Assembly (NCBI GenBank): GCA_013360215.1
Contig: JABWCP010000034.1
Span: forward strand, 1-29,712
Direction of reading: 5' to 3'
Length of the DNA stretch: 29,712 nt
DNA from: a bacterium
GTDB taxonomy: Bacteria > CLD3 > SB21
The notes beneath the pieces are model-generated. The model ran no database searches. It was given only the letters and a program-made list of their open reading frames with translations, and had not been told where the DNA came from. Each line of letters starts with the position of its first letter. Position 1 is the first letter of the stretch. Below are positions 4,675 through 29,691 of this stretch, piece by piece. Made by a program: the position numbers and the translations under genes.

Positions 4675-4698
4675 GGCCTAAAAATATGTAGGACTCTA

Positions 4699-12555: not shown

Positions 12556-12900
12556 ATGCGAGAACAAACCCATCCTATCCAAAGTATCGAAGAAGAACTG
12601 GCGGAAGCGGAGTTATCGCTCCATAGTGGTAATGACGGACGCGCGCGGGTACAATCACGCCGGGCCGTAGGATTGGCTGTCACGGCATGGCATGCCTCCC
12701 GCGGCGAATTCTCAAGACGTCCTGCGATCGAGCATTTGCGCCATATCGCGCAGGACGCAGCGCTGCCGACGCCCGTACAAAAAGCCGCCGCACGTCTGAT
12801 CAAAAACGTCAACGATCGCTTATCCGCTGATTATACGTTACACCCGGTACGCGACGCACGCATTATCATCACTTATTTTTTACAACGTCTAACCCCTTAA
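12556..12900 (+). CDS. Hypothetical protein (114 aa)
   Basis: The ORF is co-directional and tightly spaced with flanking + strand genes (ends 12900, next gene starts 12911). No recognisable motif. It competes with an antisense 92-aa ORF (12534..12812). Confidence 0.4.
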   Translation: MREQTHPIQSIEEELAEAELSLHSGNDGRARVQSRRAVGLAVTAWHASRGEFSRRPAIEHLRHIAQDAALPTPVQKAAARLIKNVNDRLSADYTLHPVRDARIIITYFLQRLTP

Positions 12901-12910
12901 CCCATCGCCT

Positions 12911-13918
12911 ATGTTTTCAACCATATTCATCATCATCGCCGGTACCGCCATCACCATTGCCGGTATCACCGCGTATAACAAAATCAAAGGCCTGATTCTC
13001 AGAAAACCCAAAGGCTTCCATCTTAACCTCGTCGAGTTTTTCCTCGTGCCGGTCGTGGCGCTTCTGATCGTTTTCGAGATATGGTCGCGCATCGTGGGTA
13101 CCCAGGAAGTGCACGCTCTGGAAATGAGCGGCAACATGCTCTGGGCGCTCGAACACGTCTCACGCGGCACCGGTAATTGGGGCGAACGTTTTTCTCTGCG
13201 CAATGTATTTGGTATCCGCGTCAGCGACGGCACGTACCTTTATAAAAAATCCATGGAAGGCAATTTTCAACGTATCGCTCAAAAAGAAAATATCGCCTGG
13301 TGCTGGGATGATGAAACGATCGTCGGTGTCGAATCTTCGACCGGCGATGTGAAATACACGATTGATCCCGATCGGTTTGAATCGTTACCGGCGTTTCGCG
13401 ATGGGGTGGCCGGTTTTGATATGAAAGCCGATGGTATCATACGTGCCACTAATAAATCCGGTCAGACGATAAACATTGACCCGCTCCATTTTACGGAAAT
13501 CGCTGCACCGCCGGATACAATAGCATCCGAACCCATTACGGCTTCGTCGGATTCTTTCAAGTTTGCTATGTCCGATACGACGAATGCGCAATTGGTCAAC
13601 GCGGCCGGCCAAATTATTTCTAAAGACATTTTAACGCACGGGCGGATTTTGCAAGTGGATCCCGTTCAAAAAATCATCATCACCCGGCATTATGAGAATA
13701 ACGATCCGCAGGATTTTATCATATCCGCGTACCTTTTTAACGGGACATTGCGCTGGCAGGTACGCTATGATCAACTCGGTGTTCGGCGTTTTTTCCTCAA
13801 AAAGAGCTTATTGGCGCACAGCCTGATCGCCGATGAACGGTTTATATTTTCAGCCGGCAACTTTGTCGTCGCATTGGATATTGCAACCGGCAGGCTTTTA
13901 TGGAAAACGGCGTTATAA
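12911..13918 (+). CDS. Hypothetical membrane-anchored protein (2 N-terminal TM helices, C-terminal PQQ-like beta-propeller-like region)
   Basis: 335 aa. Hydrophobic segments FIIIAGTAITIAGITAY and FFLVPVVALLIVFEIW. The C-terminal ATGRLLWKTAL resembles PQQ-repeat signatures. Confidence 0.5.
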   Translation: MFSTIFIIIAGTAITIAGITAYNKIKGLILRKPKGFHLNLVEFFLVPVVALLIVFEIWSRIVGTQEVHALEMSGNMLWALEHVSRGTGNWGERFSLRNVFGIRVSDGTYLYKKSMEGNFQRIAQKENIAWCWDDETIVGVESSTGDVKYTIDPDRFESLPAFRDGVAGFDMKADGIIRATNKSGQTINIDPLHFTEIAAPPDTIASEPITASSDSFKFAMSDTTNAQLVNAAGQIISKDILTHGRILQVDPVQKIIITRHYENNDPQDFIISAYLFNGTLRWQVRYDQLGVRRFFLKKSLLAHSLIADERFIFSAGNFVVALDIATGRLLWKTAL

Positions 13919-14046: not shown

Positions 14047-14943
14047 ATGCATTCCACATGGCAAGGAATATTTCCTGCAACGACAACTAAATTTAAACCC
14101 GACTTCAGCGTAGATTATGCGGCGATCGAAAAGCATACGACGTGGATGCTGGAAGCCGGAATTCACGGCCTCGTTGTTCTGGGTTCTCTTGGAGAAAACC
14201 TCACCCTCACCGAAGACGAAAAACTCGCCATACTCAAAACGGCATGCAACGTTTGCGCCGGAAAAATCCCGGTCATTGCAACCGTGATGGAAACTTCCAC
14301 GGCCAAGGCTTGTGCTTTTGCAGAAAAAGCTGCACGCGCCGGAGCACAGGGATTCATGGTATTGCCCGGCGTTCCGTATCCGTCCGATGCCCGCGAAACG
14401 ATCGCACATTACCGCACGATCGCCAAAGCAACCGACATCCCGATCATGATCTACAATAATCCGGTGGCTTATAAAGTAGACATTACACCGGAAATGTTTG
14501 CGGAAATGGCGGACGAACCCCATTTTGTAGCGATCAAAGAATCGTCCGATAATATTAGACGCGTGACGGATATCTATAATCGCGTAGGAAACCGTTATCG
14601 GATTTTTTGCGGCGTGGATGATTTGGCTATGGAAGCGCTCACTCTTGGCGCGGACGGATGGTTGGCCGGGTTGGTAGTAGCTTTCCCGCATGAAACGGTA
14701 GCAATCTACAATCTCGTGCGCGAAGGTAAAATGCAACAAGCGCTCGAAATCTACCGATGGTTCATGCCGCTGCTGCATCTGGACGTAAACACCAAATTTG
14801 TCCAAAACATCAAACTGACGGAACAATTGGTCGGTGTCGGTTCGGAGATCGTTCGTGCACCACGATTGCCTTTGATCGGAGATGAGCGTGCGCGCGTCGA
14901 ACATATCGTCCGGGAAGCTTTAGCCAAGCGTCCGAAGCTCTGA
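14047..14943 (+). CDS. DapA/DHDPS-family lyase. In this context, 1-pyrroline-4-hydroxy-2-carboxylate (Pyr4H2C) deaminase of D-hydroxyproline catabolism.
   Basis: 298 aa. DHDPS/NAL fold with Schiff-base Lys in FVAIKESS, GLVVLGSLGE and IYNNP motifs. It is the first gene of a hydroxyproline catabolic cluster (epimerase, D-Hyp dehydrogenase and KGSA dehydrogenase follow). Confidence 0.7.
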   Translation: MHSTWQGIFPATTTKFKPDFSVDYAAIEKHTTWMLEAGIHGLVVLGSLGENLTLTEDEKLAILKTACNVCAGKIPVIATVMETSTAKACAFAEKAARAGAQGFMVLPGVPYPSDARETIAHYRTIAKATDIPIMIYNNPVAYKVDITPEMFAEMADEPHFVAIKESSDNIRRVTDIYNRVGNRYRIFCGVDDLAMEALTLGADGWLAGLVVAFPHETVAIYNLVREGKMQQALEIYRWFMPLLHLDVNTKFVQNIKLTEQLVGVGSEIVRAPRLPLIGDERARVEHIVREALAKRPKL

Positions 14944-15040
14944 CAAAAAATCTGATTTACTATATCCGATCCGGGATGTACATTGATCGGCACTTCTTTG
15001 GTTACACATTCTGTAGTTCTCATCTAAACAAATATTACAC

Positions 15041-16486
15041 ATGACCACCGATATCAAACGTTTGTATATCAACGGTTCATGGATTGACGGTGGCGATACG
15101 TTTGCCAATATCAATCCGTCCGATACGTCCGACCTGATCGCTCATTATGCCGTCGCCACGGCCGATCATGTACATGATGCCGTCGCATCCGCCAAACAAG
15201 CTTTCCCCGCATGGTCGCTTTCCACTCCGCAACAACGGTTTAATATTCTCGACGCCGTTGGTGGTGAAATTTTAGCACGGCAAGATGAACTAGGCCGTTT
15301 GCTGTCGCGAGAAGAAGGAAAAACATTGCCCGAAGGAATCGGCGAAGTGGTACGCGCCGCGATGATATTCAAATTTTTTGCCGGAGAAGCTCTGCGTGCA
15401 GGTGGCGAACGCATGGCCTCCGTACGACCGGGGGTTATGGTAGATATGATGCGCGAACCGCTCGGTGTCGTCGGACTCATCACGCCATGGAATTTTCCGA
15501 TCGCAATACCGGCGTGGAAAATAGCCCCGGCATTAGCATTCGGTAACTGCGTCGTTTTTAAACCGGCTGAATTAGTCCCCGGTTGTGCATGGGCTTTGAC
15601 CGAAATTTTACACAAAGCTGGAATTCCCGCCGGTGTGTTTAACTTACTCATGGGCAAAGGATCTGTCATCGGTCGTACGATCGTTGAGCATCCCGATGTA
15701 AATGCCATTAGCTTTACCGGCTCCGTCGGTGTCGGACGACAGGTTGCGGCACAGTGTGCGGCACGTTTGGCCAAAGTACAACTGGAAATGGGAGGGAAAA
15801 ATCCTCTCGTAATCTTAGATGATGCCGATCTGTCCGTCGCCGTCAACGCCGCCGTACAAGGTGCCTATTATTCCACAGGCCAGCGATGCACGGCGTCAAG
15901 CCGCCTTATCGTGACCGAAGGTATTCATGATGCATTTGTGAAAGCTCTGACGGACAAACTTCAAACCCTGCGCATAGATGATGCATTGGCGCAAGGCACG
16001 GATATCGGCCCGGTCGTTGATCTGACACAGATGAATAAAGACCTCGAATACATTACTATCGGCGCACAAGAGAATGCACATCTTGCGTTTGGCGGTGTCG
16101 CACTCGAACGCAGCAAAAAAGGTTTTTACCTGCAACCCGCGCTGTTTACAGAGACTACCTCTGCCATGCGAATCAACCGCGAAGAAATTTTCGGCCCGGT
16201 CGCGTCAGTGATACGCGTTAAAAATTATGATGAAGCCTTAGCTATGGCCAACGATACCCCGTTCGGTCTGACGTCGGGTATCTGCACGACTTCGCTTAAA
16301 TTCGCAGAACACTTCAAGCGGCACGCGCAGGCCGGCATGGTGATGATCAATCTGCCCACTGCCGGAGTGGATTATCATGTACCCTTCGGAGGACGCAAAG
16401 GCTCCAGCTATGGGGCGCGTGAACAAGGCACGTATGCACGCGAATTTTATACAACAGTAAAAACGGCATATACCTTTGCGGGGTAA
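15041..16486 (+). CDS. NAD(P)+-dependent aldehyde dehydrogenase, probable alpha-ketoglutaric semialdehyde dehydrogenase
   Basis: 481 aa. Catalytic Glu in LEMGGKNP and catalytic Cys in TGQRCTASSR. GSVGVG NAD-binding motif. Position in the Hyp cluster. Confidence 0.75.
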   Translation: MTTDIKRLYINGSWIDGGDTFANINPSDTSDLIAHYAVATADHVHDAVASAKQAFPAWSLSTPQQRFNILDAVGGEILARQDELGRLLSREEGKTLPEGIGEVVRAAMIFKFFAGEALRAGGERMASVRPGVMVDMMREPLGVVGLITPWNFPIAIPAWKIAPALAFGNCVVFKPAELVPGCAWALTEILHKAGIPAGVFNLLMGKGSVIGRTIVEHPDVNAISFTGSVGVGRQVAAQCAARLAKVQLEMGGKNPLVILDDADLSVAVNAAVQGAYYSTGQRCTASSRLIVTEGIHDAFVKALTDKLQTLRIDDALAQGTDIGPVVDLTQMNKDLEYITIGAQENAHLAFGGVALERSKKGFYLQPALFTETTSAMRINREEIFGPVASVIRVKNYDEALAMANDTPFGLTSGICTTSLKFAEHFKRHAQAGMVMINLPTAGVDYHVPFGGRKGSSYGAREQGTYAREFYTTVKTAYTFAG

Positions 16487-16488
16487 CT

Positions 16489-17127
16489 ATGAAAGTCAGT
16501 CTCACCGATCAGGCCTACGATAAAATCGAAGAGATGCTCGTCACGTTAAAATTCAAACCCGGAACGATCATATCCGAACCTGAAATCATCGAACGGATCG
16601 GCATGGGGCGCACTCCGGTCCGCGAGGCTTTATTGCGATTGGGCAAGGAACACATGATCAAAGCCATTCCGCGCAAAGGCATTTATATCAACGAAATCCA
16701 CATCACCGATCACATCGCGTTGATGGAAACGCGTCGGGCACTGGAACGCATTATTGCTATGCGTTCGGCCAATCGCGCTACGGCGGAACAGAAAAAAGAA
16801 CTGACCCGCCTCTCGCAACGTATTGTGGATGCCGCGAAAAAAAATGATATCGAAACGTTCATTCATGCCGACCATGCGTTTGACCTTATCATCAGTGAAG
16901 CCTGTCGCAATCCGTATGCCTCCGAAGCCTGTGCTTCGCTTCGCGCGCATTGCCGACGCTTCTGGTATCGTTTTCATCATGATCAGGATTTGGTAACTTC
17001 CGCTAAACTGCACGCTGAGGTTATGAGTGCTATCGTCGCAGGTAATGAAGTGCGCGCGGGTACCGCCTCCGACAAACTGATGGATTATCTGGATCAGATG
17101 ACGCGCGTTGCGATGAATAAAGGATAA
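16489..17127 (+). CDS. GntR-family transcriptional regulator (FadR subfamily, FCD ligand-binding domain)
   Basis: 212 aa. N-terminal winged HTH (ISEPEIIERIGMGRTPVREALLRLGKEHMI) and all-helical C-terminal domain. Its start is 2 nt after the ALDH stop (TAAcuAUG). Confidence 0.8.
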   Translation: MKVSLTDQAYDKIEEMLVTLKFKPGTIISEPEIIERIGMGRTPVREALLRLGKEHMIKAIPRKGIYINEIHITDHIALMETRRALERIIAMRSANRATAEQKKELTRLSQRIVDAAKKNDIETFIHADHAFDLIISEACRNPYASEACASLRAHCRRFWYRFHHDQDLVTSAKLHAEVMSAIVAGNEVRAGTASDKLMDYLDQMTRVAMNKG

Positions 17128-17204
17128 GAATTAGAATTTAGAATTTAGAATTTAGAATTTAGAATTTAGAATTTAGAATTTAGAATTTAGAATTTAGAAT
17201 TTAG
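17128..17204. repeat. Heptanucleotide tandem repeat (AATTTAG)n: 10 perfect copies plus one degenerate copy (gaattag), 77 bp
   Basis: Read directly: GAATTAG AATTTAG x10. It begins immediately after the GntR stop codon and ends 6 bp before the ATG of the 4-Hyp epimerase gene (17211). Confidence 0.95.
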
Positions 17205-17210
17205 GTCATT

Positions 17211-18212
17211 ATGTCACGACATACATTTTCATGCATTGATGCACATACCTGCGGCAATCCGGTACGCGTTGTTACCAGCGGCGGTCCGGCACTCTTAGGC
17301 GCTAATATGAGTGAACGCCGTCAGCACTTTCTTCGCGAATTCGACTGGATACGTAAAGCGCTTATGTTCGAACCGCGTGGTCACGATATGATGTCAGGCA
17401 GCATTTTTTATCCTCCGATTGATCCGGCCAATGATGTTGCGATATTATTTATCGAAACGAGCGGCTGCCTGCCGATGTGCGGTCATGGCACGATCGGCAC
17501 AGTCACTGTGCTCATCGAGCAACGTTTGATCACGCCGCGCACACCCGGCATCCTCCGCTTGGAAGTTCCCGCCGGTATCGTCGAGGCACATTATACAATC
17601 CAACATAATAAAGTGACCAGTGTTCGCATCGTCAATATCCCCTCGTTCCTCCATTCGCAAAATCTTACCGTCGAATGCCCCGATCTCGGCGAAATCACAC
17701 TGGATGTCGCATACGGTGGTAATTTTTATGCGATCGTGGATCCGCAAAAAAACTTTAAAGGTCTTGAGACGATTTCTGCCGGTGATGTTTTACGATGGAG
17801 TCCGATCGTTCGCCAGCGTATCAACGAAAAATATACTTTCACCCATCCCGAAAATCCCACGATTTGCGGCTGTTCCCATTTACAATGGACGGGCGCTCCG
17901 ACACAAAACGAAGCCCACGCCCGCAATGCCGTATTCTACGGTGATAAAGCAATTGACCGCTCGCCCTGCGGCACAGGCACTTCCGCGCGCATGGCCCAGT
18001 GGGCGGCCAAAGGAAAACTCAAAACCGGCGATACGTTTGTACATGAAAGTATCATCGGAAGTATGTTTCGCGGGCGCGTGGAACGCACAACGCATGTCGG
18101 TGATTACGATGCCATCGTTCCAAGCATCGAAGGATGGGCTTACGTCACAGGTTACAATACGATTTTTATAGATACGGATGATCCCTACGCATACGGTTTT
18201 CAAGTTATGTAA
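17211..18212 (+). CDS. Proline racemase-family enzyme with Cys/Cys catalytic pair: 4-hydroxyproline 2-epimerase (or proline racemase)
   Basis: 333 aa. First catalytic Cys in SGCLPMCGHG (Cys90, nt 17478-80). Second catalytic Cys in DRSPCGTGTSARMA (nt 17967-69). Confidence 0.75.
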   Translation: MSRHTFSCIDAHTCGNPVRVVTSGGPALLGANMSERRQHFLREFDWIRKALMFEPRGHDMMSGSIFYPPIDPANDVAILFIETSGCLPMCGHGTIGTVTVLIEQRLITPRTPGILRLEVPAGIVEAHYTIQHNKVTSVRIVNIPSFLHSQNLTVECPDLGEITLDVAYGGNFYAIVDPQKNFKGLETISAGDVLRWSPIVRQRINEKYTFTHPENPTICGCSHLQWTGAPTQNEAHARNAVFYGDKAIDRSPCGTGTSARMAQWAAKGKLKTGDTFVHESIIGSMFRGRVERTTHVGDYDAIVPSIEGWAYVTGYNTIFIDTDDPYAYGFQVM

Positions 18213-18257
18213 CGGGATACGGTAAACATATAGAAAAAATTTAATTCGGATACGCAA

Positions 18258-19517
18258 ATGAGTTCAAAAAAAACAGATGTCGCCATCATCGGCGGAGGTG
18301 TGATCGGATTATGTACAGCGTATTACCTCAATAAAGCCGGCATCTCGGTTACGATCATCGAAAAAAAACAGCCCGGCTTTGGTTCGTCTTTCGGCAACGC
18401 CGGTCTCATCAGTCCTAGTCATTTCGTTCCTCTGGCGGCGCCGGGTATGGTTGCCAAAGGTCTCAAATGGATGTTTGATGCAGAAAGTCCATTCTATATT
18501 CATCCGCGCCCGGACATTGATCTTATCACATGGCTGTGGAAGTTTATGCGCGCGAGTACCGATAAGCGCATGCGCCCGGCTATGCCGGTATTACGCGATA
18601 TGACATTAGCCAGTCAGCAGCTTTTTCATACCATTGCCAATGAAGAGCGTTTTGATTTTGCTCTGGAACAAAAAGGCCTCATTCTTTTGCATGATACCGC
18701 CGAAGGTGAAAAAGCGCATCATCACGAAGTAGCTTTAGCCAATGAAGTCGGCGTTACGGCACGTATGATCTCGCGGGAGGAGATTCACCAAATGCAACCC
18801 GGCGTAAAAGTGCGCGCCACGGGCGGCGTATTTTTTCCCCAAGACGGGCATCTCATCCCCGATCAGTTTAACGCCAAGCTCACGTCGTTATTGCAAACAC
18901 GCGGTGTGCAGTTTATGAACGAAACCGATGTATTTGGCTTTGTCCCCAACGGCAAAGCGGCGGGACATCTGCGCACCAGCGAGGGTGACATCCATGCGAA
19001 TCAGTATGTCGTGGCGGCCGGCGCATGGACGTCCGATCTGCTCTACGAAATCGGTATTGCACTCCCGGTGCAAGCCGGTAAAGGCTATAGCGTGACCGTT
19101 AAGCGCGACAAGAATAATCTTACGATTCCGATCATTTGTACCGAAGCGCGTGTAGCCATTACCCCAATGGGCGATACGATTCGTTACGCCGGTACGCTGG
19201 AGTTGAGTGGTAACGATCTGACCATCAATCCGCGTCGCGTGAAAGCGATACTCCGGGCCGCAGACCGCTATCTTGAAAATTTTGATGCACAATCGTCGGA
19301 TATACAAACAGCCTGGGCCGGCCTTCGCCCGTGTTCACCGGACGGATTGCCTTTCATCGGCCGATTTAAGCGCACTCCCAACGTAATCGCCGCGACCGGC
19401 CATGCGATGCTCGGTATTACTCTAGGACCGATTACCGGGAAACTGGTCTCTGAAATTGTTACCAATGCACCCCAAACCATTGTATCACCGTTATTGGATG
19501 CAGACCGCTATGCCTGA
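18258..19517 (+). CDS. FAD-dependent oxidoreductase (DadA/DAO-like), probable D-hydroxyproline dehydrogenase
   Basis: 419 aa. N-terminal Rossmann dinucleotide motif VAIIGGGVIGLCTAYYL…IIEK. DAO-family C-terminal motif (GHAMLGITLGP). Confidence 0.75.
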   Translation: MSSKKTDVAIIGGGVIGLCTAYYLNKAGISVTIIEKKQPGFGSSFGNAGLISPSHFVPLAAPGMVAKGLKWMFDAESPFYIHPRPDIDLITWLWKFMRASTDKRMRPAMPVLRDMTLASQQLFHTIANEERFDFALEQKGLILLHDTAEGEKAHHHEVALANEVGVTARMISREEIHQMQPGVKVRATGGVFFPQDGHLIPDQFNAKLTSLLQTRGVQFMNETDVFGFVPNGKAAGHLRTSEGDIHANQYVVAAGAWTSDLLYEIGIALPVQAGKGYSVTVKRDKNNLTIPIICTEARVAITPMGDTIRYAGTLELSGNDLTINPRRVKAILRAADRYLENFDAQSSDIQTAWAGLRPCSPDGLPFIGRFKRTPNVIAATGHAMLGITLGPITGKLVSEIVTNAPQTIVSPLLDADRYA

Positions 19518-20577
19518 AAAAAAATCGGTATTTGAAAAACGCCTGCGCGCTATGCAGCGTTGGGAAGCGCCCGCATCGTGGCGGCGTATCGAAACGATCG
19601 AAGCGCATACCGGCGGTGAACCGCTCCGCATCATCATATCAGGATTACCGCCGATCAAAGGCCAAACCATTCTTCAGAAACGGGCGTACCTCAAGACGCA
19701 TCTTGATCATCTCCGTACGGCGCTGATGTGGGAACCGCGCGGCCATGCCGATATGTACGGTTGTATCATCACTCCGCCGGTGGAAAAAAATTCCGATTTC
19801 GGTGTGATTTTTTTGCATAACGAAGGTTATTCCACCATGTGCGGCCACGGCATCATCGCTGTTACCAAAGCGGCCGTAGAAACCGGACTTATTCATGCAC
19901 GCGGTACGAAAGTCACACTGCGCATTGATTCGCCCGCAGGACTGATCACTTCCATAGCCCAAATCCGGCGCGGCAAAGTGCAATCCGTTCGTTTTCTCAA
20001 TGTTCCATCGTTTGTACAAACTTTGGATGCCGTCGTCGACATACCGGGATTGGGACGCATACGTTATGATCTTGCGTACGGCGGTGCATTTTACGCTTTT
20101 GTGCACGCCGAAGATGCCGGTGTAACGATGGATGCGGCAGGATATCGCGGCCTTATCGAACGCGGCATGATGATCAAACGCGCTGTTATGCGGAGCGTAG
20201 CCATGCAACACCCATTCGAATCGGAGCTCAATTTTTTATACGGTACGATTTTCACCGGCCCGGGACATACGACCGGCGCAGATTCCCGCAATGTCTGTAT
20301 TTTTGCCGACGGCGAAGTGGATCGAAGCCCGACAGGAACGGGAGTCAGCGCGCGAATGGCTATTCACCATGCGCGCGGTGCGCTTCGCACCGGTGAACCG
20401 ATGGCCATCGAAAGCATTACAGGCAGTCGCTTTGTGTGCCGCGTTCATGCGACGACGACGTATGGTAACTACCCGGCGGTGATCCCCGCTATCGAAGGCA
20501 CGGCGCATCTCTGCGGAAAAAGCTCCTGGATTATAGATCCTGCCGATTCGCTGCAGGACGGTTTTTTCTTCCGTTAA
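19510..20577 (+). CDS. Proline racemase-family enzyme with Cys/Thr pair: trans-3-hydroxy-L-proline dehydratase
   Basis: ATG at 19510 overlaps the upstream stop (cuAUGccUGA). An alternative ATG at 19498 (in-frame, 4 codons upstream) is possible. The ORF-track start at 19456 is probably too long. First catalytic Cys retained (GYSTMCGHG). Second catalytic residue is Thr (DRSPTGTGVSARMA, ACA at 20332-34), the known discriminator of T3LHyp dehydratases versus epimerases. Confidence 0.7.
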   Translation: MPEKKSVFEKRLRAMQRWEAPASWRRIETIEAHTGGEPLRIIISGLPPIKGQTILQKRAYLKTHLDHLRTALMWEPRGHADMYGCIITPPVEKNSDFGVIFLHNEGYSTMCGHGIIAVTKAAVETGLIHARGTKVTLRIDSPAGLITSIAQIRRGKVQSVRFLNVPSFVQTLDAVVDIPGLGRIRYDLAYGGAFYAFVHAEDAGVTMDAAGYRGLIERGMMIKRAVMRSVAMQHPFESELNFLYGTIFTGPGHTTGADSRNVCIFADGEVDRSPTGTGVSARMAIHHARGALRTGEPMAIESITGSRFVCRVHATTTYGNYPAVIPAIEGTAHLCGKSSWIIDPADSLQDGFFFR

Positions 20578-20582
20578 AATCC

Positions 20583-21551
20583 ATGCGATTTATTCCAAGC
20601 GACACACTGCGTGAGTTGATCACTATGCCTGAAGCGATAACGGCAATGCAATCGGCATTTTCTGCATTATCCGATGGGTCGGCTGTTGTGCCGCTTCGAA
20701 CGACCCTTGACTTTCCCGGTTCCGACGCCCGTGCGCTGATCATGCCGGCTTATCATTCATCATCTCGGTACTTCACGACCAAAATAGTGACGGTATGTCC
20801 GACCAATGCCGCGCGCCATCTTCCGCTCATCCACGGTACACTGATCGTTACGGACGGATCCACAGGAAAAACACTGGCACTGATGGATGCAGAGTGGATT
20901 ACGGCTTTGCGGACTGGTGCGGCTTCCGGACTGGCCACGGAATGGATGGCTCTTCCCGATGCGCATACATTAGGAGTTTTCGGGACAGGTGCGCAGGCCT
21001 ACGAACAGGTGCGTGGCGTCATGAGTGTACGGAAATTAACACGGATTATTATATTTGGCCGCGATCCCCAAAAAACAACTACGTTTTGTAAAACTGTTTC
21101 AAATCAATTTGCAATTCCTTGTTTTCCCGCTCAAGCGCCGCAAGAGGTTTCCCAATGTGATATCCTCTGCTGCGCAACCAATGCGCATAACCCGGTTTTT
21201 GAAGATAAGTATCTCACGCACGGTACGCACATCAATGGTATCGGCGCATTCAAACCCGCAATGCGTGAAATACCATCAGCGACTATAGCACGCGCTCGCA
21301 TTATCGTAGATCAACGCGCATCCGCATGGCGTGAAGCCGGCGACTTGATCCTCGCTCAAAAAGATGGAGTAGTCGCTGAAGATTGCATTGCCGGCGAAAT
21401 CGGCGAAGTCGTCACGCATAAAACTTCCGGACGTATATCCCGAGAACAAATCACCATCTTCAAGTCCGTAGGTAATGCGATTCAGGATAATGTAATTGCA
21501 TCCATGGCTTATGAACGTGCCCTCAAAGCGGGAATAGGAACGGAGATTTGA
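20583..21551 (+). CDS. Ornithine cyclodeaminase/mu-crystallin-family protein, probable delta1-pyrroline-2-carboxylate reductase
   Basis: 322 aa. OCD/mu-crystallin fold with NAD(P) Rossmann motif GVFGTGAQA. Located 5 bp downstream of the Cys/Thr dehydratase gene. Confidence 0.65.
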   Translation: MRFIPSDTLRELITMPEAITAMQSAFSALSDGSAVVPLRTTLDFPGSDARALIMPAYHSSSRYFTTKIVTVCPTNAARHLPLIHGTLIVTDGSTGKTLALMDAEWITALRTGAASGLATEWMALPDAHTLGVFGTGAQAYEQVRGVMSVRKLTRIIIFGRDPQKTTTFCKTVSNQFAIPCFPAQAPQEVSQCDILCCATNAHNPVFEDKYLTHGTHINGIGAFKPAMREIPSATIARARIIVDQRASAWREAGDLILAQKDGVVAEDCIAGEIGEVVTHKTSGRISREQITIFKSVGNAIQDNVIASMAYERALKAGIGTEI

Positions 21552-21754
21552 ACCTACGATTAGTATTAGAAAACAACTTGTTCATATTCGAAATATATAT
21601 TTGTTTTGACGTGCCGTAGACCATGACCTCATAATTTCCACATGTAACCAACGCTGATGCTAAAAACATGACCTGTATGACCTATACTTAATGGGTTATT
21701 CACGTACGAATAGACCAATTCGGCGAAACCTTTATTCTTATTTATATTTTCGCT

Positions 21755-22363
21755 CTAGCCTATATGAAAAGACGGGAAGTTATTAGGATTAGAACCTTTC
21801 CCACCTTCACCATAATCATGATCTATATTAAATAAGTTATATTTAATTATTCCATACATAACACTTGTTTGTGAGCTGCGCTTCGAGATAATTAATCCGG
21901 GGGAAATACCCGAGGCAAGTTTATCCGTTCGTTCAGAATAAAATAAAAAATAATTAGTATAGTTCAGCAAAAGAGACATTTGCATTTTCGAATTATCAGG
22001 AGTAACTCTATATTTTAACATTCCTCTTAAGCCAAAATCACAACTTTTTATATTCGCACCCAACACAACTTTAGAGAGTAACACCGGTGCGGCATACCCA
22101 CTCCACAAACTTGCCCCTACATTTAGGCGGTCACTTATACCATACGATAACCTAGGTTCAAGTATTGCGGGTGTAATCGCTTTTACAAAATGATCTCTTG
22201 GTTTTTTTGACCATTCTTCTGGACCACCTGAAGCGCTAGTCAGTACACTGAATTTCCCACGATTTAATGTTTCCGCATCTTGGTGTTCAATTATACTTAT
22301 ACCGCCACAACTAATTTGAGGTAAGGAAAAAATAATTATACAGCATTTAACAATTTTATTCAT
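21755..22363 (-). CDS. Secreted hypothetical protein, outer-membrane beta-barrel-like
   Basis: 202 aa. Signal peptide plus alternating hydrophobic pattern. The ATG lies 36 bp beyond the distal end of the last repeat element (22399). No matching element follows its stop. Confidence 0.45.
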   Translation of the reverse strand: MNKIVKCCIIIFSLPQISCGGISIIEHQDAETLNRGKFSVLTSASGGPEEWSKKPRDHFVKAITPAILEPRLSYGISDRLNVGASLWSGYAAPVLLSKVVLGANIKSCDFGLRGMLKYRVTPDNSKMQMSLLLNYTNYFLFYSERTDKLASGISPGLIISKRSSQTSVMYGIIKYNLFNIDHDYGEGGKGSNPNNFPSFHIG

Positions 22364-22398
22364 CGTTGCCCCATTTTAATAGAATATAACCGCATGGT

Positions 22399-22590
22399 AC
22401 ATAACGGATCGCGACAATCTGCGATGGTGCGGTATAAGGTTTCGAAAATTTCAAACCACTCGTGTCTCGCGCCACGCTGTATGTGAAGTGCGAACTCGAT
22501 TTATTATTTGACATTATTAAGATTACCCTTAAAATCCCATTTTAAATATTGTACGAGCCCTGAATGAACAGATGGACCGCGAATTATTCG
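22399..22590 (-). repeat. attC-like element copy 1 (degenerate 5' stem arm)
   Basis: acATAACggatcgcgac … cgcgccacg … gaacagatggaccgcgAATTATtcg. It is the most distal copy. Confidence 0.5.
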
Positions 22591-23403
22591 TTGGACTTAT
22601 CAGTTTTTAATAATTTTGTCCTTACGAAAATCTTGTAAGATGCTTTTCTGAAGAAAAACCCGTCACCTTTAGTGAATACACCATCGGAATAAATGGACAT
22701 TTAATGCTCCATATTCTATTTTGATAGTTTTGATTGCATATTTGGCTTCCCATATCACTGCATCACTTTTAATCGGTTGCAACATAAATAAAAAAAACTT
22801 CTTGTTTCTCTACCGCTAGAAGTGATACTTATGAAGTAGCGCCGGTATATTTATCTGTATACGTTCTAATTCCAATGTTTTCAATTGCAGTATTATCAGA
22901 TTTTGTATGGTAATAGTCAGCAGTTTCCATACTTAAAATTAGATCTGCACAAACTCGTGTACAATTTCCTCAACTGTTTGACTGATTAATAATCTATTTC
23001 CTTCTATAATCTTTAATTCAATTTGGTAGGTATTTAGCATTTCTTCTAATTTTTTTAAACGCACCATGAAATTCCCTATTTATAAACTCTATCTACATGT
23101 TTACGGGTACTTTTTTATCAGGTAGATCCCACAATTTCTTTAATTAAGATTTAAAATTACCTCGCGCACAGGAAATAACTAAAAATAGAAATGTAAAAAA
23201 AATATTTTTCAAAAGACTTTCAATTTTTAAACGTTCTGTGACGTTTGCATAACTTTTCATAGTATTAGATGCGCCATTGTTCGAGGTATCTTTATCTTTA
23301 AACTTTCTACTCTTGGTACTCGCATCTATCTGAACCGAGATATGTCATCAAATATCGCAGTCTGGGGAAACAAATATAGAGCATTTCGATTTCATTGCCG
23401 TTA

Positions 23404-24030
23404 TCATGGGGTTATGATCGGCGTATCCGCACTGAATAAAAGTCCAATAGAAATTGACCCTGACCATAAATTTTTTAATTGATTTGCCGAAACTGAGAAA
23501 ACAAGAGAAGCCTTGGAAGTCAGTTGTTTAGCGCTTGAAATACCCAAAAAAACACCAGTTTGTGGTTTAGCGCTACGTTCTCCACTCAAAATCATCACAA
23601 CCCCATATCCAAGTTCCGGCGCCAAACGAAAATCATTTCCTTCAGTAATATCTACGGACATACCACCGCTAAAGTTAATTGATTGAGGCATAGCAAATTT
23701 TGCACGTTTCCATTTCAAAAAAGCAAAGTCAACAAAAGGATGTAGGCGCCCTGAGGCAGAATACATTTCAATTTCTGGGGAAAAATAACTAACTTCTTTT
23801 TCATCAGATTTCAATGTTCCACCGACAATGCTGAATTCGATACCTTCTTTGAAGCTAATCGATAAATATCCTGCTTTTGACGAGGAATTTTTACTTCCAT
23901 ACGCATGAACACCGCCCATACTCATGACAGAACCATCACAATGCGAAACTAGCCGCCTTTGAGCGCTAGAAGGGGTGATTAAGAACTGAAGCAGAGCCGT
24001 TAAAAACAATAGTTTTTTCATATTCAACAT
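23404..24030 (-). CDS. Cassette ORF: secreted outer-membrane beta-barrel-like protein (208 aa)
   Basis: Signal peptide MKKLLFLTALLQFLITPSSAQ followed by amphipathic beta-strand pattern. Confidence 0.5.
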   Translation of the reverse strand: MLNMKKLLFLTALLQFLITPSSAQRRLVSHCDGSVMSMGGVHAYGSKNSSSKAGYLSISFKEGIEFSIVGGTLKSDEKEVSYFSPEIEMYSASGRLHPFVDFAFLKWKRAKFAMPQSINFSGGMSVDITEGNDFRLAPELGYGVVMILSGERSAKPQTGVFLGISSAKQLTSKASLVFSVSANQLKNLWSGSISIGLLFSADTPIITP

Positions 24031-24107
24031 TCCAAAGGTTACTAAAATGAGGCATCACTCAAAACATCATGCTACAAATGTTGTACCAGTAAACAAGTAA
24101 ATCCAAT

Positions 24108-24240
24108 CGTCTAATTCTACTTGCTCAACGCGCCACAATGTATTCGAACTGTAAACTCAAATTATTATTTAAAAAACAATCACTTGAAAAATCTTATTTT
24201 CTGTGTTCCGCAATCAGTGAGCAAACATCTGTGGTTATGC
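24108..24240 (-). repeat. attC-like element copy 2 (truncated and degenerate)
   Basis: cGTCTAAttc…cgcgccacaatgtattcgaact…ttattatttaaaaa…cagtgagcaaacatctgtgGTTATGC. It aligns to the 3' two-thirds of copy 10. Confidence 0.4.
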
Positions 24241-24432
24241 TATTCAATGCTGCTTTGATTTAGTATCCAAACAATAATCCACATTCAACTGCCTCAACAA
24301 ATCTGTTTTTATGATTCCTTAATGATATCAATATTTTATGTTTTTTTATCATTAACATTGACTTTTTCTATCTTTCCATAATTCCAAGCCCAAAAGTACT
24401 CCCAATATTGGCATTTGATTACCATTAAACGT

Positions 24433-24553
24433 ATATAACTGTAGCGGCATGCTGCAAGTAACTATTATTTGTTAAAACTTTAACCATTCCTTGTAAAAAC
24501 CTTACTTTCAATACTTCACGAGGAGCATGCGAACAGATGGGTGCGGGTTAGAG
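24433..24553 (-). repeat. attC-like element copy 3 (short variant lacking the central hairpin)
   Basis: ATATAAC-tgtagcggcatgctgcaagtaactattatttgttaaaac…tactttcaatacttcacgaggagcatgcgaacagatgggtgcgGGTTAGAG. Confidence 0.5.
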
Positions 24554-24679
24554 ACATTACAGATTTATTTATTCATCTCATTTTTTTGCAGCTGTTGCAA
24601 TATTCAATCCTGGGGCTAAATTAGCACCTATCACAGCTCGTTGCGGCCAATGATTTGGATCTGAACCAATTCATTGTTT

Positions 24680-24925
24680 TCATAGATTATAAAAAACGCC
24701 ACGGCTTTCTATACGACTCAATATAATTTGTAATGATAGAATATGAGTTTTGTGCGAACCGGTCTCTTCCAATGGCTTTTCAAGTTGATATAAACACGCC
24801 TCAACTTCTTTGTCAAAATCTGGAATTTTAGCTACTGTCGATACAACCCATATAATATTGTCATGCGAAACCATTCGCGAGCGACCAGGCACACTTGCGT
24901 TCCATCTTTTAATTTTATTTTCCAT
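24680..24925 (-). CDS. Cassette ORF: hypothetical protein (81 aa)
   Basis: Only ORF in the 24554..24993 cassette. Start is 70 bp from the upstream element end. Confidence 0.4.
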   Translation of the reverse strand: MENKIKRWNASVPGRSRMVSHDNIIWVVSTVAKIPDFDKEVEACLYQLEKPLEETGSHKTHILSLQIILSRIESRGVFYNL

Positions 24926-24993
24926 TCAATCCTGTCGACAGCAATATATTACTCTATCAATTTAATCAGCTTTTGTTAATTAGTATTGAAGCT

Positions 24994-25182
24994 AAAAGTC
25001 TTCGGTATCCACGGTTCTGTAGCGGAGGTATTTAAAAACTTCAAATCTCTCGCGCCTCACGCCACAGTATCGGCACAATGCGGGTTACAATTATTTGCTA
25101 AAATTCTAATCAGTATCTATAAAAATCTTATTATCCATATTCTACGAGCATCGTGCGAACGGATCACTAGAAGATTAGACGC
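24994..25182 (-). repeat. attC-like element copy 4 (degenerate ends)
   Basis: …cggtatccacggttctgtagcggaggta…ctctcgcgcctcacgccacagtatcggcacaatgcgggttacaattatttg…ctacgagcatcgtgcgaacggatcac…GATTAGAC. Abuts the stop of ORF 25191..25757. Confidence 0.5.
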
Positions 25183-25190
25183 ACATCAAT

Positions 25191-25757
25191 TTATTTCAAT
25201 TTCAATCTCAAACCAATTCCTAGTGCAACATGGTTATATTTTATGTTCATCTTCTCATCCTCAAACTTCCATCGCGCTTTATGCCGTTGATAACCAATAT
25301 CAAAATTTAAAAAAAAGAAGTTTAAACCCGTAGAAATCCCAAAATATGAACCATCTTTGATCGTTCCTCCCCCTTCATAAGAAACATTATTAGATATTAA
25401 TGAAACCCCATATTGAAAGCCAAAATACACGTGGTTCATGTGGTCCGATAACTTAATTTGCAGGGCACCATAAAATGGTCTTACGCTAAATTTTCCTCCC
25501 CATCTTTTAGTCGCCATTGTGGTACTTTTGCTCATACCGCCACCTATAATAAAATATTTGTTTACCGGAAAGAGCATTTCACCTGAAAATTGTATTGAAT
25601 GTACTTTCTCAGTTAATGGCTCTTTTAAATCCCAAAAGTTTGTTGACTCTGATATATGTTTTCCATCAATATCTTTTGAGATTCTTAAAAAGATTTCTTG
25701 AGCATTGATTGAAGATGCTAAAGATGCGATTAAAAGTGTCGAGATTACTCTATTCAT
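25191..25757 (-). CDS. Cassette ORF: secreted outer-membrane beta-barrel-like protein (188 aa)
   Basis: Signal peptide MNRVISTLLIASLASSINAQE. Alternating hydrophobic residues. C-terminal …ALGIGLRLKLK. Confidence 0.5.
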   Translation of the reverse strand: MNRVISTLLIASLASSINAQEIFLRISKDIDGKHISESTNFWDLKEPLTEKVHSIQFSGEMLFPVNKYFIIGGGMSKSTTMATKRWGGKFSVRPFYGALQIKLSDHMNHVYFGFQYGVSLISNNVSYEGGGTIKDGSYFGISTGLNFFFLNFDIGYQRHKARWKFEDEKMNIKYNHVALGIGLRLKLK

Positions 25758-25793
25758 TCTTAGTTTTAAATATAAACATGCAAATTGATGTGC

Positions 25794-25960
25794 GTCTAAC
25801 GTTGCCTGTATCTGCGGTGCTGCGGCGTGGGGTATCTGAAAATTTTCGACTATTAGCCCCTCGCACCGCGATATGTGCCGAGACGCGTGCCCAGCTATCG
25901 TATCCGGGAGAATCTAATATTACACGTATCGAGATCGCTGCCGCTATCATGGAGTTAGGC
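25794..25960 (-). repeat. attC-like element copy 5 (textbook ends: GCCTAAC proximal and GTTAGAC distal on the cassette strand)
   Basis: + strand: GTCTAACgttgcctgtatctgcggtgctgcggcgtgggg…cccctcgcaccgcg…GTTAGGC. GTTAGGC at 25954-60 lies 5 bp from the stop (25947-49) of ORF 25947..26417. The interior is divergent from the other copies while the stem is retained with indels. Confidence 0.6.
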
Positions 25961-26417
25961 GTCTGCACAGCGCTTTTATTTTAAAAATATCACATAAATT
26001 AAACTTTGATTCATCAAAATCATTGTACTTATACTCTGCAAAAACAGCAATTTTTTGTTTGCCAACTAAAATACTATCAATATATAATGTATTATTTGTA
26101 ATACTAAACTCTACTCCTGAATCAAATGTATTTTCTTCGCTATTCCAACTCCTTAATAAACCATTTTCAACTTTATACGAGGTCTCCCCTTCATAATCAA
26201 TACAATCACCCTCATCATCATAACTCCATTCTTTTTGAGTATCGGCTGTAAACTGCATGTAAAATTCGCCCTCGTAAAGAGACTTGTTTTGCTTGTATAA
26301 CTTCCATTTTGTATTTGGAATAGATGCAATGTTGTTTTCTTTATCATCACTACAGGCTTGCAAAGCACTAAAAATTATAACGATTGTTGCGAGGCTTTTG
26401 ATAAGGAACGACTTCAT
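25947..26417 (-). CDS. Cassette ORF: lipoprotein (156 aa)
   Basis: Signal peptide with lipobox (FSALQACSD). Confidence 0.5.
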   Translation of the reverse strand: MKSFLIKSLATIVIIFSALQACSDDKENNIASIPNTKWKLYKQNKSLYEGEFYMQFTADTQKEWSYDDEGDCIDYEGETSYKVENGLLRSWNSEENTFDSGVEFSITNNTLYIDSILVGKQKIAVFAEYKYNDFDESKFNLCDIFKIKALCRRLTP

Positions 26418-26517
26418 ACAATCTCCTAATTTAAAACTATTTATATAGTGGAATTTCGATCATAAATACATTTGAGTATGTGTTTAGTAAATGGATTGGC
26501 GGTCAATGCTGCATGAC

Positions 26518-26708
26518 GCCTAACGGTCTCCGGTATCTGCGGTGCTGTGGCGCGAGGTATATGAAAAACTCAAACCTCTCGTACCTCGCTCCACAGTATC
26601 GGCACGATGCGAGTTACAATTATCGTTAGAAATCTAATCATTACCTACAAAAACCCTGTTTTCAATAATCTAAGAGCAGCAAGCGAACGGATGGGCCGCG
26701 TGTTATTC
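26518..26708 (-). repeat. attC-like element copy 6
   Basis: GCCTAACggtctccggtatctgcggtgctgtggcgcgaggta…cctcgctccacagtatcggcacgatgcgag…ctaagagcagcaagcgaacggatgggccgcgtGTTATTC. It is 18 bp from the stop of ORF 26726..27253. Confidence 0.6.
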
Positions 26709-26725
26709 GAAGACCCGCGTTCACT

Positions 26726-27253
26726 TTACGAATTATCTTGCCTGATCCACCAACTGCTGAGAATAGGAAGCATCACGATCTGACCCACGGCGGCCCAGAC
26801 ACCCGGTAAAAGTGCGACTTCAAAGTATTCAACAGCGTTTGACTCAGGCACATAAGTCAAGAGAGCACAGACAATAAATGCTATTCTTCCAAAGATTAGA
26901 CCCATCAATACACAAGCAAACTTATTTATGCTTGTTTTTTCTCGCATCAATCCTATTGACAATCCATATATCATAAGTTCAACCGTCATTGACGGTAAGA
27001 TACTAGGCAATGGATAACCAGAAACAATATAACTGAGTATTGGTGCAAAAATGCCTGCAATTGTTCCTGCACGCCAACCGTATACCAAGCCAGCTAAAAT
27101 GATTGGCCAATGCATCGGTAGCATTATTCTTACCGGTGCACCAATGAAATGCATTCCTATTGGCAATAGAACGGCGACCAAAACAAATATGATTTGTAGA
27201 GTGTATGCTTTCACTCCTTGCAAAGCTAAGGTCTGTGCTTCACTTGCTGACAT
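26726..27253 (-). CDS. Cassette ORF: small polytopic membrane protein (ECF-transporter S-component/BioY-like, tentative)
   Basis: 175 aa with ~5 hydrophobic helices. Gly-rich helix motif AGLVYGWRAGTIAGIFAPILSYIVSGYP resembles S-component signatures. Confidence 0.4.
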   Translation of the reverse strand: MSASEAQTLALQGVKAYTLQIIFVLVAVLLPIGMHFIGAPVRIMLPMHWPIILAGLVYGWRAGTIAGIFAPILSYIVSGYPLPSILPSMTVELMIYGLSIGLMREKTSINKFACVLMGLIFGRIAFIVCALLTYVPESNAVEYFEVALLPGVWAAVGQIVMLPILSSWWIRQDNS

Positions 27254-27303
27254 GCAATCCTTTCTATCTCTTTTTAGGGATTAAATTGTGTTAAGCGGCT
27301 TTC

Positions 27304-27494
27304 GGATAACGGTCTCCGGTATCCGCGGTGCTGTGGCGCGAGGTACCTGAAAACATAAAATCTCTCGTGCCTCGCGCCACAGTATCGGCATGCTGCGAGT
27401 TACAATTATTTATTAGAAGTCTACTCATTACCTATAAAAAGCTTATTTTCAACACTCTACGAGCATCGTGCGAACGGATCACCGGATGGTTATC
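27304..27494 (-). repeat. attC-like element copy 7
   Basis: GGATAACggtctccggtatccgcggtgctgtggcgcgaggtacctgaaaac…cctcgcgccacagtatcggcatgctgcgag…gaacggatcaccggatgGTTATC. Followed by only 102 bp before copy 8. Confidence 0.6.
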
Positions 27495-27596
27495 ACCTTC
27501 ACAAGCCATTAATCCAAATAATAATATCACAAGTAGGTTGGAAAAATAGAATCTCATAAAATCCTCTCTTAGTTTTATTAGAAATTGAGAGCTATC

Positions 27597-27789
27597 AGAT
27601 AACGGTTCGCGACTATCTGCGGTGCTGTGGCGCAGGGTACCTGAAAACTTTTACTATTAGTTCCCTGCGCCACAGTATCGGCATGCTGCGAGTAACTATT
27701 ATTTATTAAAAATCTAATCATTCTTTGTAAAAAGCCTACTTTCAATACTCTACGAGCAGCATGCGAACAGATGGGTCGCGTTTTATATG
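27597..27789 (-). repeat. attC-like element copy 8 (stem with compensatory changes GCAGGG/CCCTGC)
   Basis: AGATAACggttcgcgactatctgcggtgctgtggcgcagggtacctgaaaac…ccctgcgccacagtatcggcatgctgcgag…cagcatgcgaacagatgggtcgcgTTTTATATG. Confidence 0.6.
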
Positions 27790-27826
27790 TCATTGCGCTA
27801 TATTATTTTGATCAACAATCATTTTT

Positions 27827-28261
27827 TCATTCATTTAAGAATCTAAGACGAAACACCCTTTCTCCAGTCTGCTCATGTGTCTTTTCAGCGACAAATCTGA
27901 ATCCGTACTTTGCATAGAATTTGCGTCCAACTATATTTTTTTCAAAGACTTCAACAATCAACTCATTGTGAAATTCGAGTGCTTTATCTACCAACATTTT
28001 CCCAAAATTCTTCCCAATATGAGTAGGCTGAAGAAATAGACCTCCAATTTCATTTTGAATCAGCGAAACAAATCCAACAACAACACCATCAACCTCAATT
28101 ACCCACGTTTCCACATTTGGTAGATAAAGATCACGAACATTTTTCTTTTCTTGTGCTTGAAAATCTTCAGACAAGAACGGATGAGCTAAACATTGGGCAT
28201 TTTCCCATGCAGAGAGTACCGCAGATAAATCTGATTCTCTATATTTTCGAATTGAAATCAC
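27827..28261 (-). CDS. Cassette ORF: GNAT-family N-acetyltransferase (144 aa)
   Basis: Acetyl-CoA-binding motif A region (VVGFVSL…IGKNFGKMLVDKAL) and C-terminal FYAKYGF typical of GNAT. Confidence 0.7.
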   Translation of the reverse strand: MISIRKYRESDLSAVLSAWENAQCLAHPFLSEDFQAQEKKNVRDLYLPNVETWVIEVDGVVVGFVSLIQNEIGGLFLQPTHIGKNFGKMLVDKALEFHNELIVEVFEKNIVGRKFYAKYGFRFVAEKTHEQTGERVFRLRFLNE

Positions 28262-28317
28262 TTTTCACTCCATAAATTAACAACATTACAACAATAATTT
28301 CAAAAATGGGCAATGGC

Positions 28318-28508
28318 ATATAACGGTTCGCGACTATCTGCGGTGCTGTGGCGCAGGGTATATGAAAACTTTTACTATTAGTTCCCTGCGCCACAGTATC
28401 GGCATGCTGCGAGTACAATTATTTATAAACAATTTATCCATTCCTTGTAAAAACCCTACTTTCAATACTCTACGAGCAGCATGCGAACAGATGGGTCGCG
28501 GGTTATGC
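28318..28508 (-). repeat. attC-like element copy 9 (near-identical to copy 8)
   Basis: ATATAACggttcgcgactatctgcggtgctgtggcgcagggtatatgaaaac…ccctgcgccacagtatcggcatgctgcgag…gatgggtcgcggGTTATGC. It is 15 bp from the stop of ORF 28523..28972. Confidence 0.6.
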
Positions 28509-28522
28509 GTGGTGATGCTTCA

Positions 28523-28972: not shown

Positions 28973-28997
28973 ACAAATTCTTTCAAAGCATCATCAC

Positions 28998-29200
28998 GCC
29001 TAACGGCACGCCATAGGCGATGTGTCGTGGCGCGAGGTATCTGAAAACTTACACCTACTCGTTCCTCGCGCCACGATATATGCGAACTGCGAGCCTAATT
29101 TATTATTTAAAAATGATACATTCACCTGTAAAAACCCTATTTTCAATACCCTGCGAGCAGTGAGTGAACGCCTGTGGCGATGTTATCTGAGGCTTGAGGC
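28998..29200 (-). repeat. attC-like element copy 10
   Basis: GCCTAACggcacgccataggcgatgtgtcgtggcgcgaggta…cctcgcgccacgatatatgcgaactgcgag…cctgtggcgatGTTATCTGAGGCTTGAGGC. Stop of ORF 29203..29673 is 3 bp beyond it. Confidence 0.6.
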
Positions 29201-29202
29201 GA

Positions 29203-29673: not shown

Positions 29674-29691
29674 TTAAAAAAATATTAATGC

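Follow-up and report, generated by a model that had tools for sequence, protein, structure and literature searches.

What do two members of the proline racemase superfamily do side by side in one bacterial gene cluster, and do they catalyse the same kind of reaction? The question is raised by a contig of 29,712 nucleotides (nt) from a bacterium of the GTDB lineage Bacteria; CLD3; SB21 (JABWCP010000034.1, assembly GCA_013360215.1; this whole stretch is called the window in the following), in which two open reading frames (ORFs) on the forward strand, 17211..18212 and 19510..20577, both match the Pfam Pro_racemase profile over its whole length. Within this superfamily, enzymes with a pair of catalytic cysteines (Cys-Cys type) are proline racemases (ProR) or hydroxyproline epimerases (HypE), and those with a threonine at the second catalytic position (Cys-Thr type) are trans-3-hydroxy-L-proline (T3LHyp) dehydratases. 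A preliminary description of this DNA had taken the Cys/Thr pair as the established signature of T3LHyp dehydratases, and the literature bears this out: the rule is explicit in four studies (PMC4364671, PMC4141209, PMC3958920, PMC4113996), three of which distinguish Cys-Cys, Cys-Thr and Ser-Cys types (PMC3958920, PMC4141209, PMC4364671), although the superfamily also holds exceptions (PMC4113996), which are weighed below. Judged from its sequence, the ORF 19510..20577 very probably encodes such a T3LHyp dehydratase of the Cys/Thr type.

The ORF is intact from its ATG to its TAA stop and encodes 355 amino acids (aa), of which residues 30-352 are covered by Pro_racemase PF05544 (profile positions 2-324 of 325, E 1.6e-111). 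Both catalytic positions can be read directly and are as first described: Cys111 (codon TGC, 19840..19842, forward strand), which would be the retained general base, lies in the MCGH motif of TMCGHG, and Thr275 (codon ACA, 20332..20334, forward strand) stands in DRSPTGTG in place of the second catalytic Cys. With Thr275 at the second position, the protein lacks the two opposed catalytic cysteines by which racemases and epimerases are recognised. Its paralogue 17211..18212 (333 aa) does carry both, again in agreement with the preliminary description, namely Cys90 (TGC, 17478-80) in PMCGHG and Cys253 (TGC, 17967-69) in DRSPCGTG. The paralogue can be assigned to the 4-hydroxyproline 2-epimerases of the Cys/Cys type, as it passes the NCBIfam equivalog model PRK13971 '4-hydroxyproline epimerase' with 598.3 bits at a cut-off of 376, and 4-hydroxyproline epimerase is also the name that NCBI gives to its product. 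With an identity of only 36%, the two proteins represent ancient members of the superfamily and not a recent duplication.

Alignment with characterised enzymes, which had been proposed as a check, places Thr275 on the active-site Thr of the T. litoralis dehydratase (DRSPTGTG) and on Thr273 of human L3HYPDH (DRSPTGSG), and thus confirms that it occupies the catalytic position; the same column holds Cys in the proline racemase 7PB3 and in the paralogue 17211..18212. Cys111 aligns with the corresponding Cys of 6R76 (T. litoralis), 7QPO (human, Cys104) and 7PB3. Among the 120 best database homologues, the first catalytic column is Cys and the second is Thr in every case (120/120 each). All of the ligand-site residues named for the T. 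litoralis complex 6R77 and for the human enzyme (hL3HYPDH) are present as Met110, Tyr195 (tlTyr188/hTyr192) and Thr277 (tlThr270/hSer275), and so is the pair Asp81-Arg272 (human Asp74-Arg270), the counterpart of a salt bridge that accompanies domain closure in characterised dehydratases. Met110, Tyr195, Asp81 and Arg272 are invariant in the 120 homologues, and Thr277 is found in 119 of them. The motifs HNEGYS-x-MCGH and FLYGTI are common to the 19510..20577 protein and both dehydratases and are missing from ProR 7PB3 and from the epimerase 17211..18212; both are invariant across 38 aligned diverse homologues from many phyla, over which a total of 74 columns are invariant, including the entire DR-x-PTGTG loop. 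The variable residue of this loop deserves a separate remark: DRCPTG replaces DRSPTG in 41 of the 120 closest Cys/Thr homologues (Cys for Ser at residue 273 of the window protein), a variant on which we found no published comment in the pathway literature cited here.

Thr275 is real, the result of neither chance nor sequencing error, since ACA differs from the Cys codons TGT and TGC at all three positions, since three independently assembled contigs encode an identical 19510..20577 protein, and since all 120 homologues have Thr in this column. Thr275 is also kept in a relative with 96% amino-acid identity, another metagenome-assembled genome (MAG) with the same gene order, and a sequencing or assembly artefact could be ruled out. 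Between the dehydratase gene and that of the same relative, 23 synonymous stand against 15 nonsynonymous codon differences, as would fit purifying selection. Translation probably begins at the ATG at 19510. A TTG further upstream, at 19456, was dropped as an alternative because of the lengths and coverage of the homologues (with ATG 19510, many homologues of 355 aa cover 100% of the query) and because of an N-terminal helix which, together with a W-E-x-P-x-x-W motif, the protein has in common with the T. litoralis enzyme; the NCBI gene call also uses the ATG.

Among solved structures, the best match is the T3LHyp dehydratase TlLhpH of T. litoralis (6R76/6R77; E 6.7e-133, 57% identity, residues 10-355), an enzyme (OCC_00387) with a Km of 0.288 mM and a kcat of 1710 per min for T3LHyp (PMC4141209), although its chain has been deposited under the name 'proline racemase'. 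Human L3HYPDH follows in second place (7QPO; E 8.8e-90, 44% identity), whereas the genuine proline racemase 7PB3 is a weaker match (E 5e-80, 40% identity) and the Ser/Thr enzyme of Agrobacterium, 4K7G, a much weaker one (E 8.8e-48). Expressed as phmmer scores, the sequence runs from TlLhpH (446 bits) over hL3HYPDH (305) and ProR 7PB3 (272) to TlProR 6J7C (245). An AlphaFold2 model of the protein, built on the homologue alignment (pLDDT 91.6, pTM 0.89), retrieved chains of 6R76 as its four best Foldseek matches in the PDB (TM 0.84-0.91), and the top NCBIfam model is the dehydratase TransHydProDhtase, NF045511 (394.9 bits), ahead of proline racemase (338.2) and 4-hydroxyproline epimerase (298.2). 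On its sequence relationships the protein is to be placed in the canonical Cys/Thr clade, and not in the Ser/Thr or promiscuous groups.

The preliminary description had further proposed that the gene immediately downstream, a member of the ornithine cyclodeaminase (OCD) family, is the matching reductase, and this proposal has held up. The gene 20583..21551 (forward strand, 322 aa, OCD/mu-crystallin family PF02423, E 7.7e-64) begins 5 nt past the dehydratase stop, and we predict it to be a delta1-pyrroline-2-carboxylate (Pyr2C) reductase of the LhpI type. Its best PDB match is the Pyr2C reductase TlLhpI of T. litoralis (6T3E; E 6.7e-67, 229 bits), and the archaeal AfAlaDH (E 4.7e-49, 170 bits) and the OCD of P. 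putida (E 2.8e-21, 79 bits) are weaker. The residues of cyclodeamination, E56/D228/K232 in OCD, correspond to R52/D219/K223 in AfAlaDH and to L52/V224/A228 in TlLhpI (Watanabe et al., PMC4141209). An ungapped alignment to TlLhpI puts L52/F223/M227 of the window protein at these positions, and AfAlaDH has D and K in the columns of F223 and M227. Because E56/D228/K232 are replaced in this way, the name 'ornithine cyclodeaminase' that NCBI gives to the product is probably wrong. At the position of Asp159 in TlLhpI, a residue that marks its NAD(H) preference (PMC4141209), the window protein has Gly159-Arg160, and this replacement may be taken as a hint of a preference for NADPH. Pairs of a T3LHyp dehydratase and an OCD-family Pyr2C reductase have been verified in vitro in several lineages (PMC4113996, PMC3958920).

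From the mechanism of characterised family members we infer how the two proteins could act together. Cys111 would take the alpha-proton from T3LHyp; since Thr275 replaces the Cys on the opposite face, no reprotonation from that face, and hence no epimerisation, would be expected. The 3-hydroxyl group would leave instead, giving delta2-pyrroline-2-carboxylate, which would tautomerise to Pyr2C, and the OCD-family protein 20583..21551 would reduce Pyr2C to L-proline with NAD(P)H.

Dehydratase and reductase form the end of a series of seven co-directional genes (14047-21551, with successive gaps of 97, 2, 83, 45, -8 and 5 nt) in the order DHDPS-like, aldehyde dehydrogenase, GntR, 4-hydroxyproline (4-Hyp) epimerase, DAO, dehydratase and reductase. 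Genes 1, 2, 4 and 5 belong to the families of the trans-4-Hyp route to alpha-ketoglutarate (PMC4113996, PMC4364671), and the last two genes make up the trans-3-hydroxyproline (T3Hyp) route to L-proline. The first gene, 14047..14943 (forward strand; Pfam DHDPS, E 2.2e-56), scores 176.7 with the DapA equivalog model, under its cut-off of 206; from gene context and PMC4113996 it is predicted to be the delta1-pyrroline-4-hydroxy-2-carboxylate deaminase of step 3. The aldehyde dehydrogenase 15041..16486 (forward strand; Pfam Aldedh) is the predicted alpha-ketoglutarate semialdehyde dehydrogenase of step 4, and its top NCBIfam models are the alpha-ketoglutarate semialdehyde dehydrogenase GucD (516 bits) and 2,5-dioxovalerate dehydrogenase (498 bits), both under their cut-offs. 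A transcriptional regulator of the GntR/FCD type (16489..17127, forward strand; Pfam GntR and FCD) starts 2 nt past the aldehyde dehydrogenase stop. Between epimerase and dehydratase lies an FAD-dependent oxidoreductase of the DAO family (18258..19517, forward strand; Pfam DAO PF01266, E 4.9e-71), whose best NCBIfam model is a D-amino acid dehydrogenase subfamily, likewise under its cut-off, and for which PMC4113996 suggests the role of a cis-4-hydroxy-D-proline dehydrogenase or oxidase. The end of the DAO gene and the ATG of the dehydratase overlap by 8 nt (ATGCCTGA), and this stop/start overlap suggests that the two genes are translationally coupled.

GC content per gene (0.50-0.54) and GC at third codon positions (GC3) are homogeneous over the seven genes, so that a separate horizontal acquisition of the T3Hyp pair, for which a higher GC at 19-21 kb in the 1-kb profile gave a hint, is unsupported. 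Gene families and arrangement indicate that the whole cluster is an operon for both trans-4- and trans-3-hydroxyproline; its co-transcription is what we infer from this arrangement. Terminator-like sites over 12.4-22.5 kb are no more common than in shuffled sequence (11 vs 13.1 ± 3.3), and promoter-like sites number 24 in the same region against 15.6 ± 4.2 in shuffles. The promoter-like excess is largely due to seven overlapping matches in or at the edge of a heptamer repeat described below, and we therefore claim no transcript boundaries. An Rfam scan at gathering thresholds and a tRNA scan over the whole window found nothing.

How far the pairing of the two genes extends was examined in one genome per species (GTDB representatives), which gave 80 loci with Cys/Thr homologues that are 55-65% identical (best match 65%) and come from Bacteroidota, Ignavibacteria, Calditrichota, Desulfobacterales, Chloroflexota, Zixibacteria, Acidobacteriota and others. 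An OCD-family homologue lies inside the fetched flanks of 38 of these 80 loci, and in 31 it is the immediate neighbour on the same strand (19 downstream, 12 upstream); where at least 3 kb are available on both sides, adjacency is found in 22 of 49. Two loci, L003 and L027, repeat the order of the window, with epimerase, DAO, Cys/Thr gene and OCD. A further locus, from Candidatus Zixiibacteriota (L045, CP070674.1), has a different neighbour: directly upstream of the Cys/Thr gene and on the same strand, an ORF of 787 aa (4589-6955) ends in a C-terminal RVAGYSDYF motif of glycyl-radical type, and it may encode a glycyl-radical hydroxyproline dehydratase tied to the T3Hyp enzyme in an anaerobe.

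Several observations weigh against the assignment of the two genes to a T3LHyp pathway. The dyad rule has exceptions, as there are Ser/Cys 4-Hyp epimerases, Ser/Thr dehydratases and one promiscuous cluster (PMC4113996), and the nearest assayed relative of the 19510..20577 protein is only about 57% identical. With NF045511 the protein remains under the equivalog cut-off (394.9 vs 540), and likewise with NF047722 (234.6 vs 550). The reductase candidate 20583..21551 stays under all NCBIfam cut-offs (PRK06141 258.6/322, PRK07340 172.7/266, NF045512 146.7/400), and its pocket is not identical to that of the characterised reductase, having an Arg, R50, two residues before L52, which HMMER opens a gap to align with the Arg of AfAlaDH. 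About half of the related loci are without an OCD gene within 7 kb, and neither a hydroxyproline transporter nor an L-proline dehydrogenase was seen adjoining the cluster. As regards NF045511, the sub-threshold score loses its force as counter-evidence, because the validated dehydratases of T. litoralis (413.9) and human (356.3) also fall short of 540; the cut-off marks a subgroup that is narrower than the set of enzymes with this activity. A score under this cut-off also accounts for the generic name 'proline racemase family protein' at NCBI.

This generic name, and that of the Pfam family ('Proline racemase'), would fit a proline racemase or hydroxyproline epimerase that is redundant with 17211..18212, and the NCBIfam model for proline racemase does still yield 338 bits. 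Such a function is nevertheless very improbable: the 19510..20577 protein stays under the cut-offs of both ProR (556) and 4-Hyp epimerase (376), each of which it matches less well than the dehydratase model, whereas 7PB3, a true racemase, reaches 596.3 bits with its own model and so clears the cut-off; the second catalytic Cys is missing in all 120 closest homologues; and, as relayed in PMC3958920, the human enzyme epimerises only after mutation of its Thr to Cys, by which it gains T3LHyp epimerase activity. It is equally hard to believe that the gene is a paralogue in decay or already inactive, which lost its second Cys along with its function, a merely formal possibility that arises from any substituted catalytic residue and has nothing specific in its favour. 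The full-length, intact ORF and its high-confidence model speak against decay, and so do the invariance of 74 columns in 38 homologues, with the DR-x-PTGTG loop among them, the preponderance of synonymous differences from the close relative, the coupling of the start to the upstream gene and the conservation of the partner gene.

A dehydratase of shifted or broadened substrate range is the sole non-routine possibility that remains for the 19510..20577 enzyme. It might act on a different cyclic 3-hydroxy imino acid, for instance 3-hydroxypipecolate or a cis isomer, or be bifunctional with an additional 2-epimerase activity, and its OCD partner might be a general reductase of Pyr2C and delta1-piperideine-2-carboxylate (Pip2C) that also serves D-proline or D-lysine catabolism. 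Some superfamily clusters are indeed heterogeneous or promiscuous (PMC4113996); reductases of the LhpI type take Pyr2C as well as Pip2C and are part of the breakdown of D-proline and D-lysine in Azospirillum brasilense (PMC3958920), the same role has been proposed for T. litoralis (PMC4141209), the adjoining enzyme of the DAO family might conceivably form Pyr2C by oxidation of D-proline, and an identity of 57% to the nearest assayed enzyme leaves room for such a shift. On the other hand, the characterised Cys-Thr enzymes are reported to use T3LHyp only (PMC4364671), all ligand-site residues of the T3LHyp complex 6R77 are kept, and the promiscuous cluster is the Ser-containing group of the Agrobacterium type (4K7G), a far weaker match. 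We therefore regard a broader specificity as unlikely, if less so than racemisation or decay, and a T3LHyp dehydratase of the ordinary Cys/Thr type as the preferred explanation.

The system that comes closest to this pair of dehydratase and reductase is that of T. litoralis. Its dehydratase is 57% identical to ours from end to end, N-terminal extension included, and both have the Cys/Thr pair, Met-Cys-Gly-His, the Tyr of GGAFYAF and PTGTG; its OCD partner is the best PDB match of 20583..21551 and agrees with it in Leu52 and in having hydrophobic residues where OCD has Asp and Lys; and in both organisms a Cys/Cys paralogue lies in the same cluster. However, the T. litoralis enzyme comes from a hyperthermophilic archaeon, the cluster around it has L-proline dehydrogenases and a bifunctional ProR/HypE and not the bacterial enzymes that lead from 4-Hyp to alpha-ketoglutarate, and Asp159 of TlLhpI, the NAD(H) residue, is replaced by Gly159-Arg160 in the window. 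Human L3HYPDH (C14orf149; 7QPO), at 44% identity, agrees in the catalytic pair (Cys104/Thr273 for Cys111/Thr275), in the Asp-Arg salt bridge and in the Tyr and Met of the ligand site. It differs in Ser275, which is Thr in the window and T. litoralis proteins, and in a regulatory disulphide between Cys104 and Cys137, the window protein being without Cys at the position aligned to Cys137; moreover, it is encoded by a eukaryotic gene without operon context.

Among bacteria, the LhpH/LhpI systems of A. brasilense and Colwellia psychrerythraea 34H (PMC3958920), here compared by description, likewise convert T3LHyp via Pyr2C to L-proline with an enzyme of the Cys-Thr type and a reductase of the OCD family. 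In C. psychrerythraea 34H the T3 pair is embedded in a trans-4-Hyp cluster, the same 'combined' layout as in the window, and this combined T4/T3 cluster was suggested in 2014 to be suited to collagen utilisation (PMC3958920). The T3 and T4 clusters of A. brasilense, in contrast, are separate and separately induced (PMC3958920), and unlike the clusters of the LhpH/LhpI bacteria, that of the window includes a GntR gene within it and has no transporter next to it. The pairs of T3Hyp dehydratase and OCD protein that Zhao et al. (2014, eLife; PMC4113996) defined by genome-neighbourhood networks show the same family pairings, with DAAO, DHDPS, aldehyde dehydrogenase and OCD as neighbours; their set also includes Ser/Thr dehydratases and promiscuous members, whereas the window protein is a canonical Cys/Thr one.

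Within the cluster, the gap of 83 nt between the GntR stop and the epimerase ATG is occupied almost entirely by a perfect tandem repeat, (AGAATTT) x 11.3 at 17127-17204, which occurs nowhere else in the window and in none of the 80 related loci. The MAG with 96% amino-acid identity has the heptamer repeat at the same place, and there it continues up to a stretch of N that fills a scaffold gap (locus L083, 7531-7693), while a third contig, L002, starts inside the repeat. The repeat is thus a point at which two other assemblies of this lineage break. Both observations indicate that the copy number may be larger or variable. The repeat separates GntR from the four distal genes, which are those of the 4-Hyp epimerase, the predicted D-hydroxyproline dehydrogenase, the T3LHyp dehydratase and the Pyr2C reductase. 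Should the number of copies differ within the population, the repeat could conceivably be a simple-sequence (phase-variable) switch or a spacer that sets the expression of the hydroxyproline genes, an idea that we put forward as a rather unlikely one.

Outside the cluster, GC falls from 0.47-0.55 over the operon to 0.34-0.41 at 21600-29712, and between 21.7 and 29.7 kb there are small minus-strand ORFs with N-termini resembling signal peptides or those of lipoproteins. These low-GC ORFs are mutually dissimilar and not paralogues of one another; they have no bearing on the dehydratase assignment. A Pfam scan of two downstream ORFs, 21755-22363 and 23404-24030, gave no match, and an ORF at 26726-27253 resembles the S-component of an ECF transporter. 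Upstream, the ORFs 12556-12900 and 12911-13918 have no evident link to the pathway, and a Pfam scan of the latter returned no significant family. Still further upstream, the minus strand encodes a Sortilin/BNR-repeat protein of 1059 aa (4699-7878) and a family-5 peptide-type ABC solute-binding protein (2865-4487).

The main value of these results lies in a corrected annotation, by which a 'proline racemase family protein' and an 'ornithine cyclodeaminase' become a predicted T3LHyp dehydratase and a predicted Pyr2C reductase. What is known of the enzyme family and of the pathway is left unchanged by the assignment of 19510..20577, and the wide spread of the Cys/Thr clade over phyla gains one data point. 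For the uncultured organism, the presence of the trans-4 enzymes and the trans-3 pair in a single cluster means that one locus could dispose of both hydroxyproline isomers, and both isomers, derived from collagen-like or hydroxyproline-rich proteins, are probably catabolised via this one compact locus.

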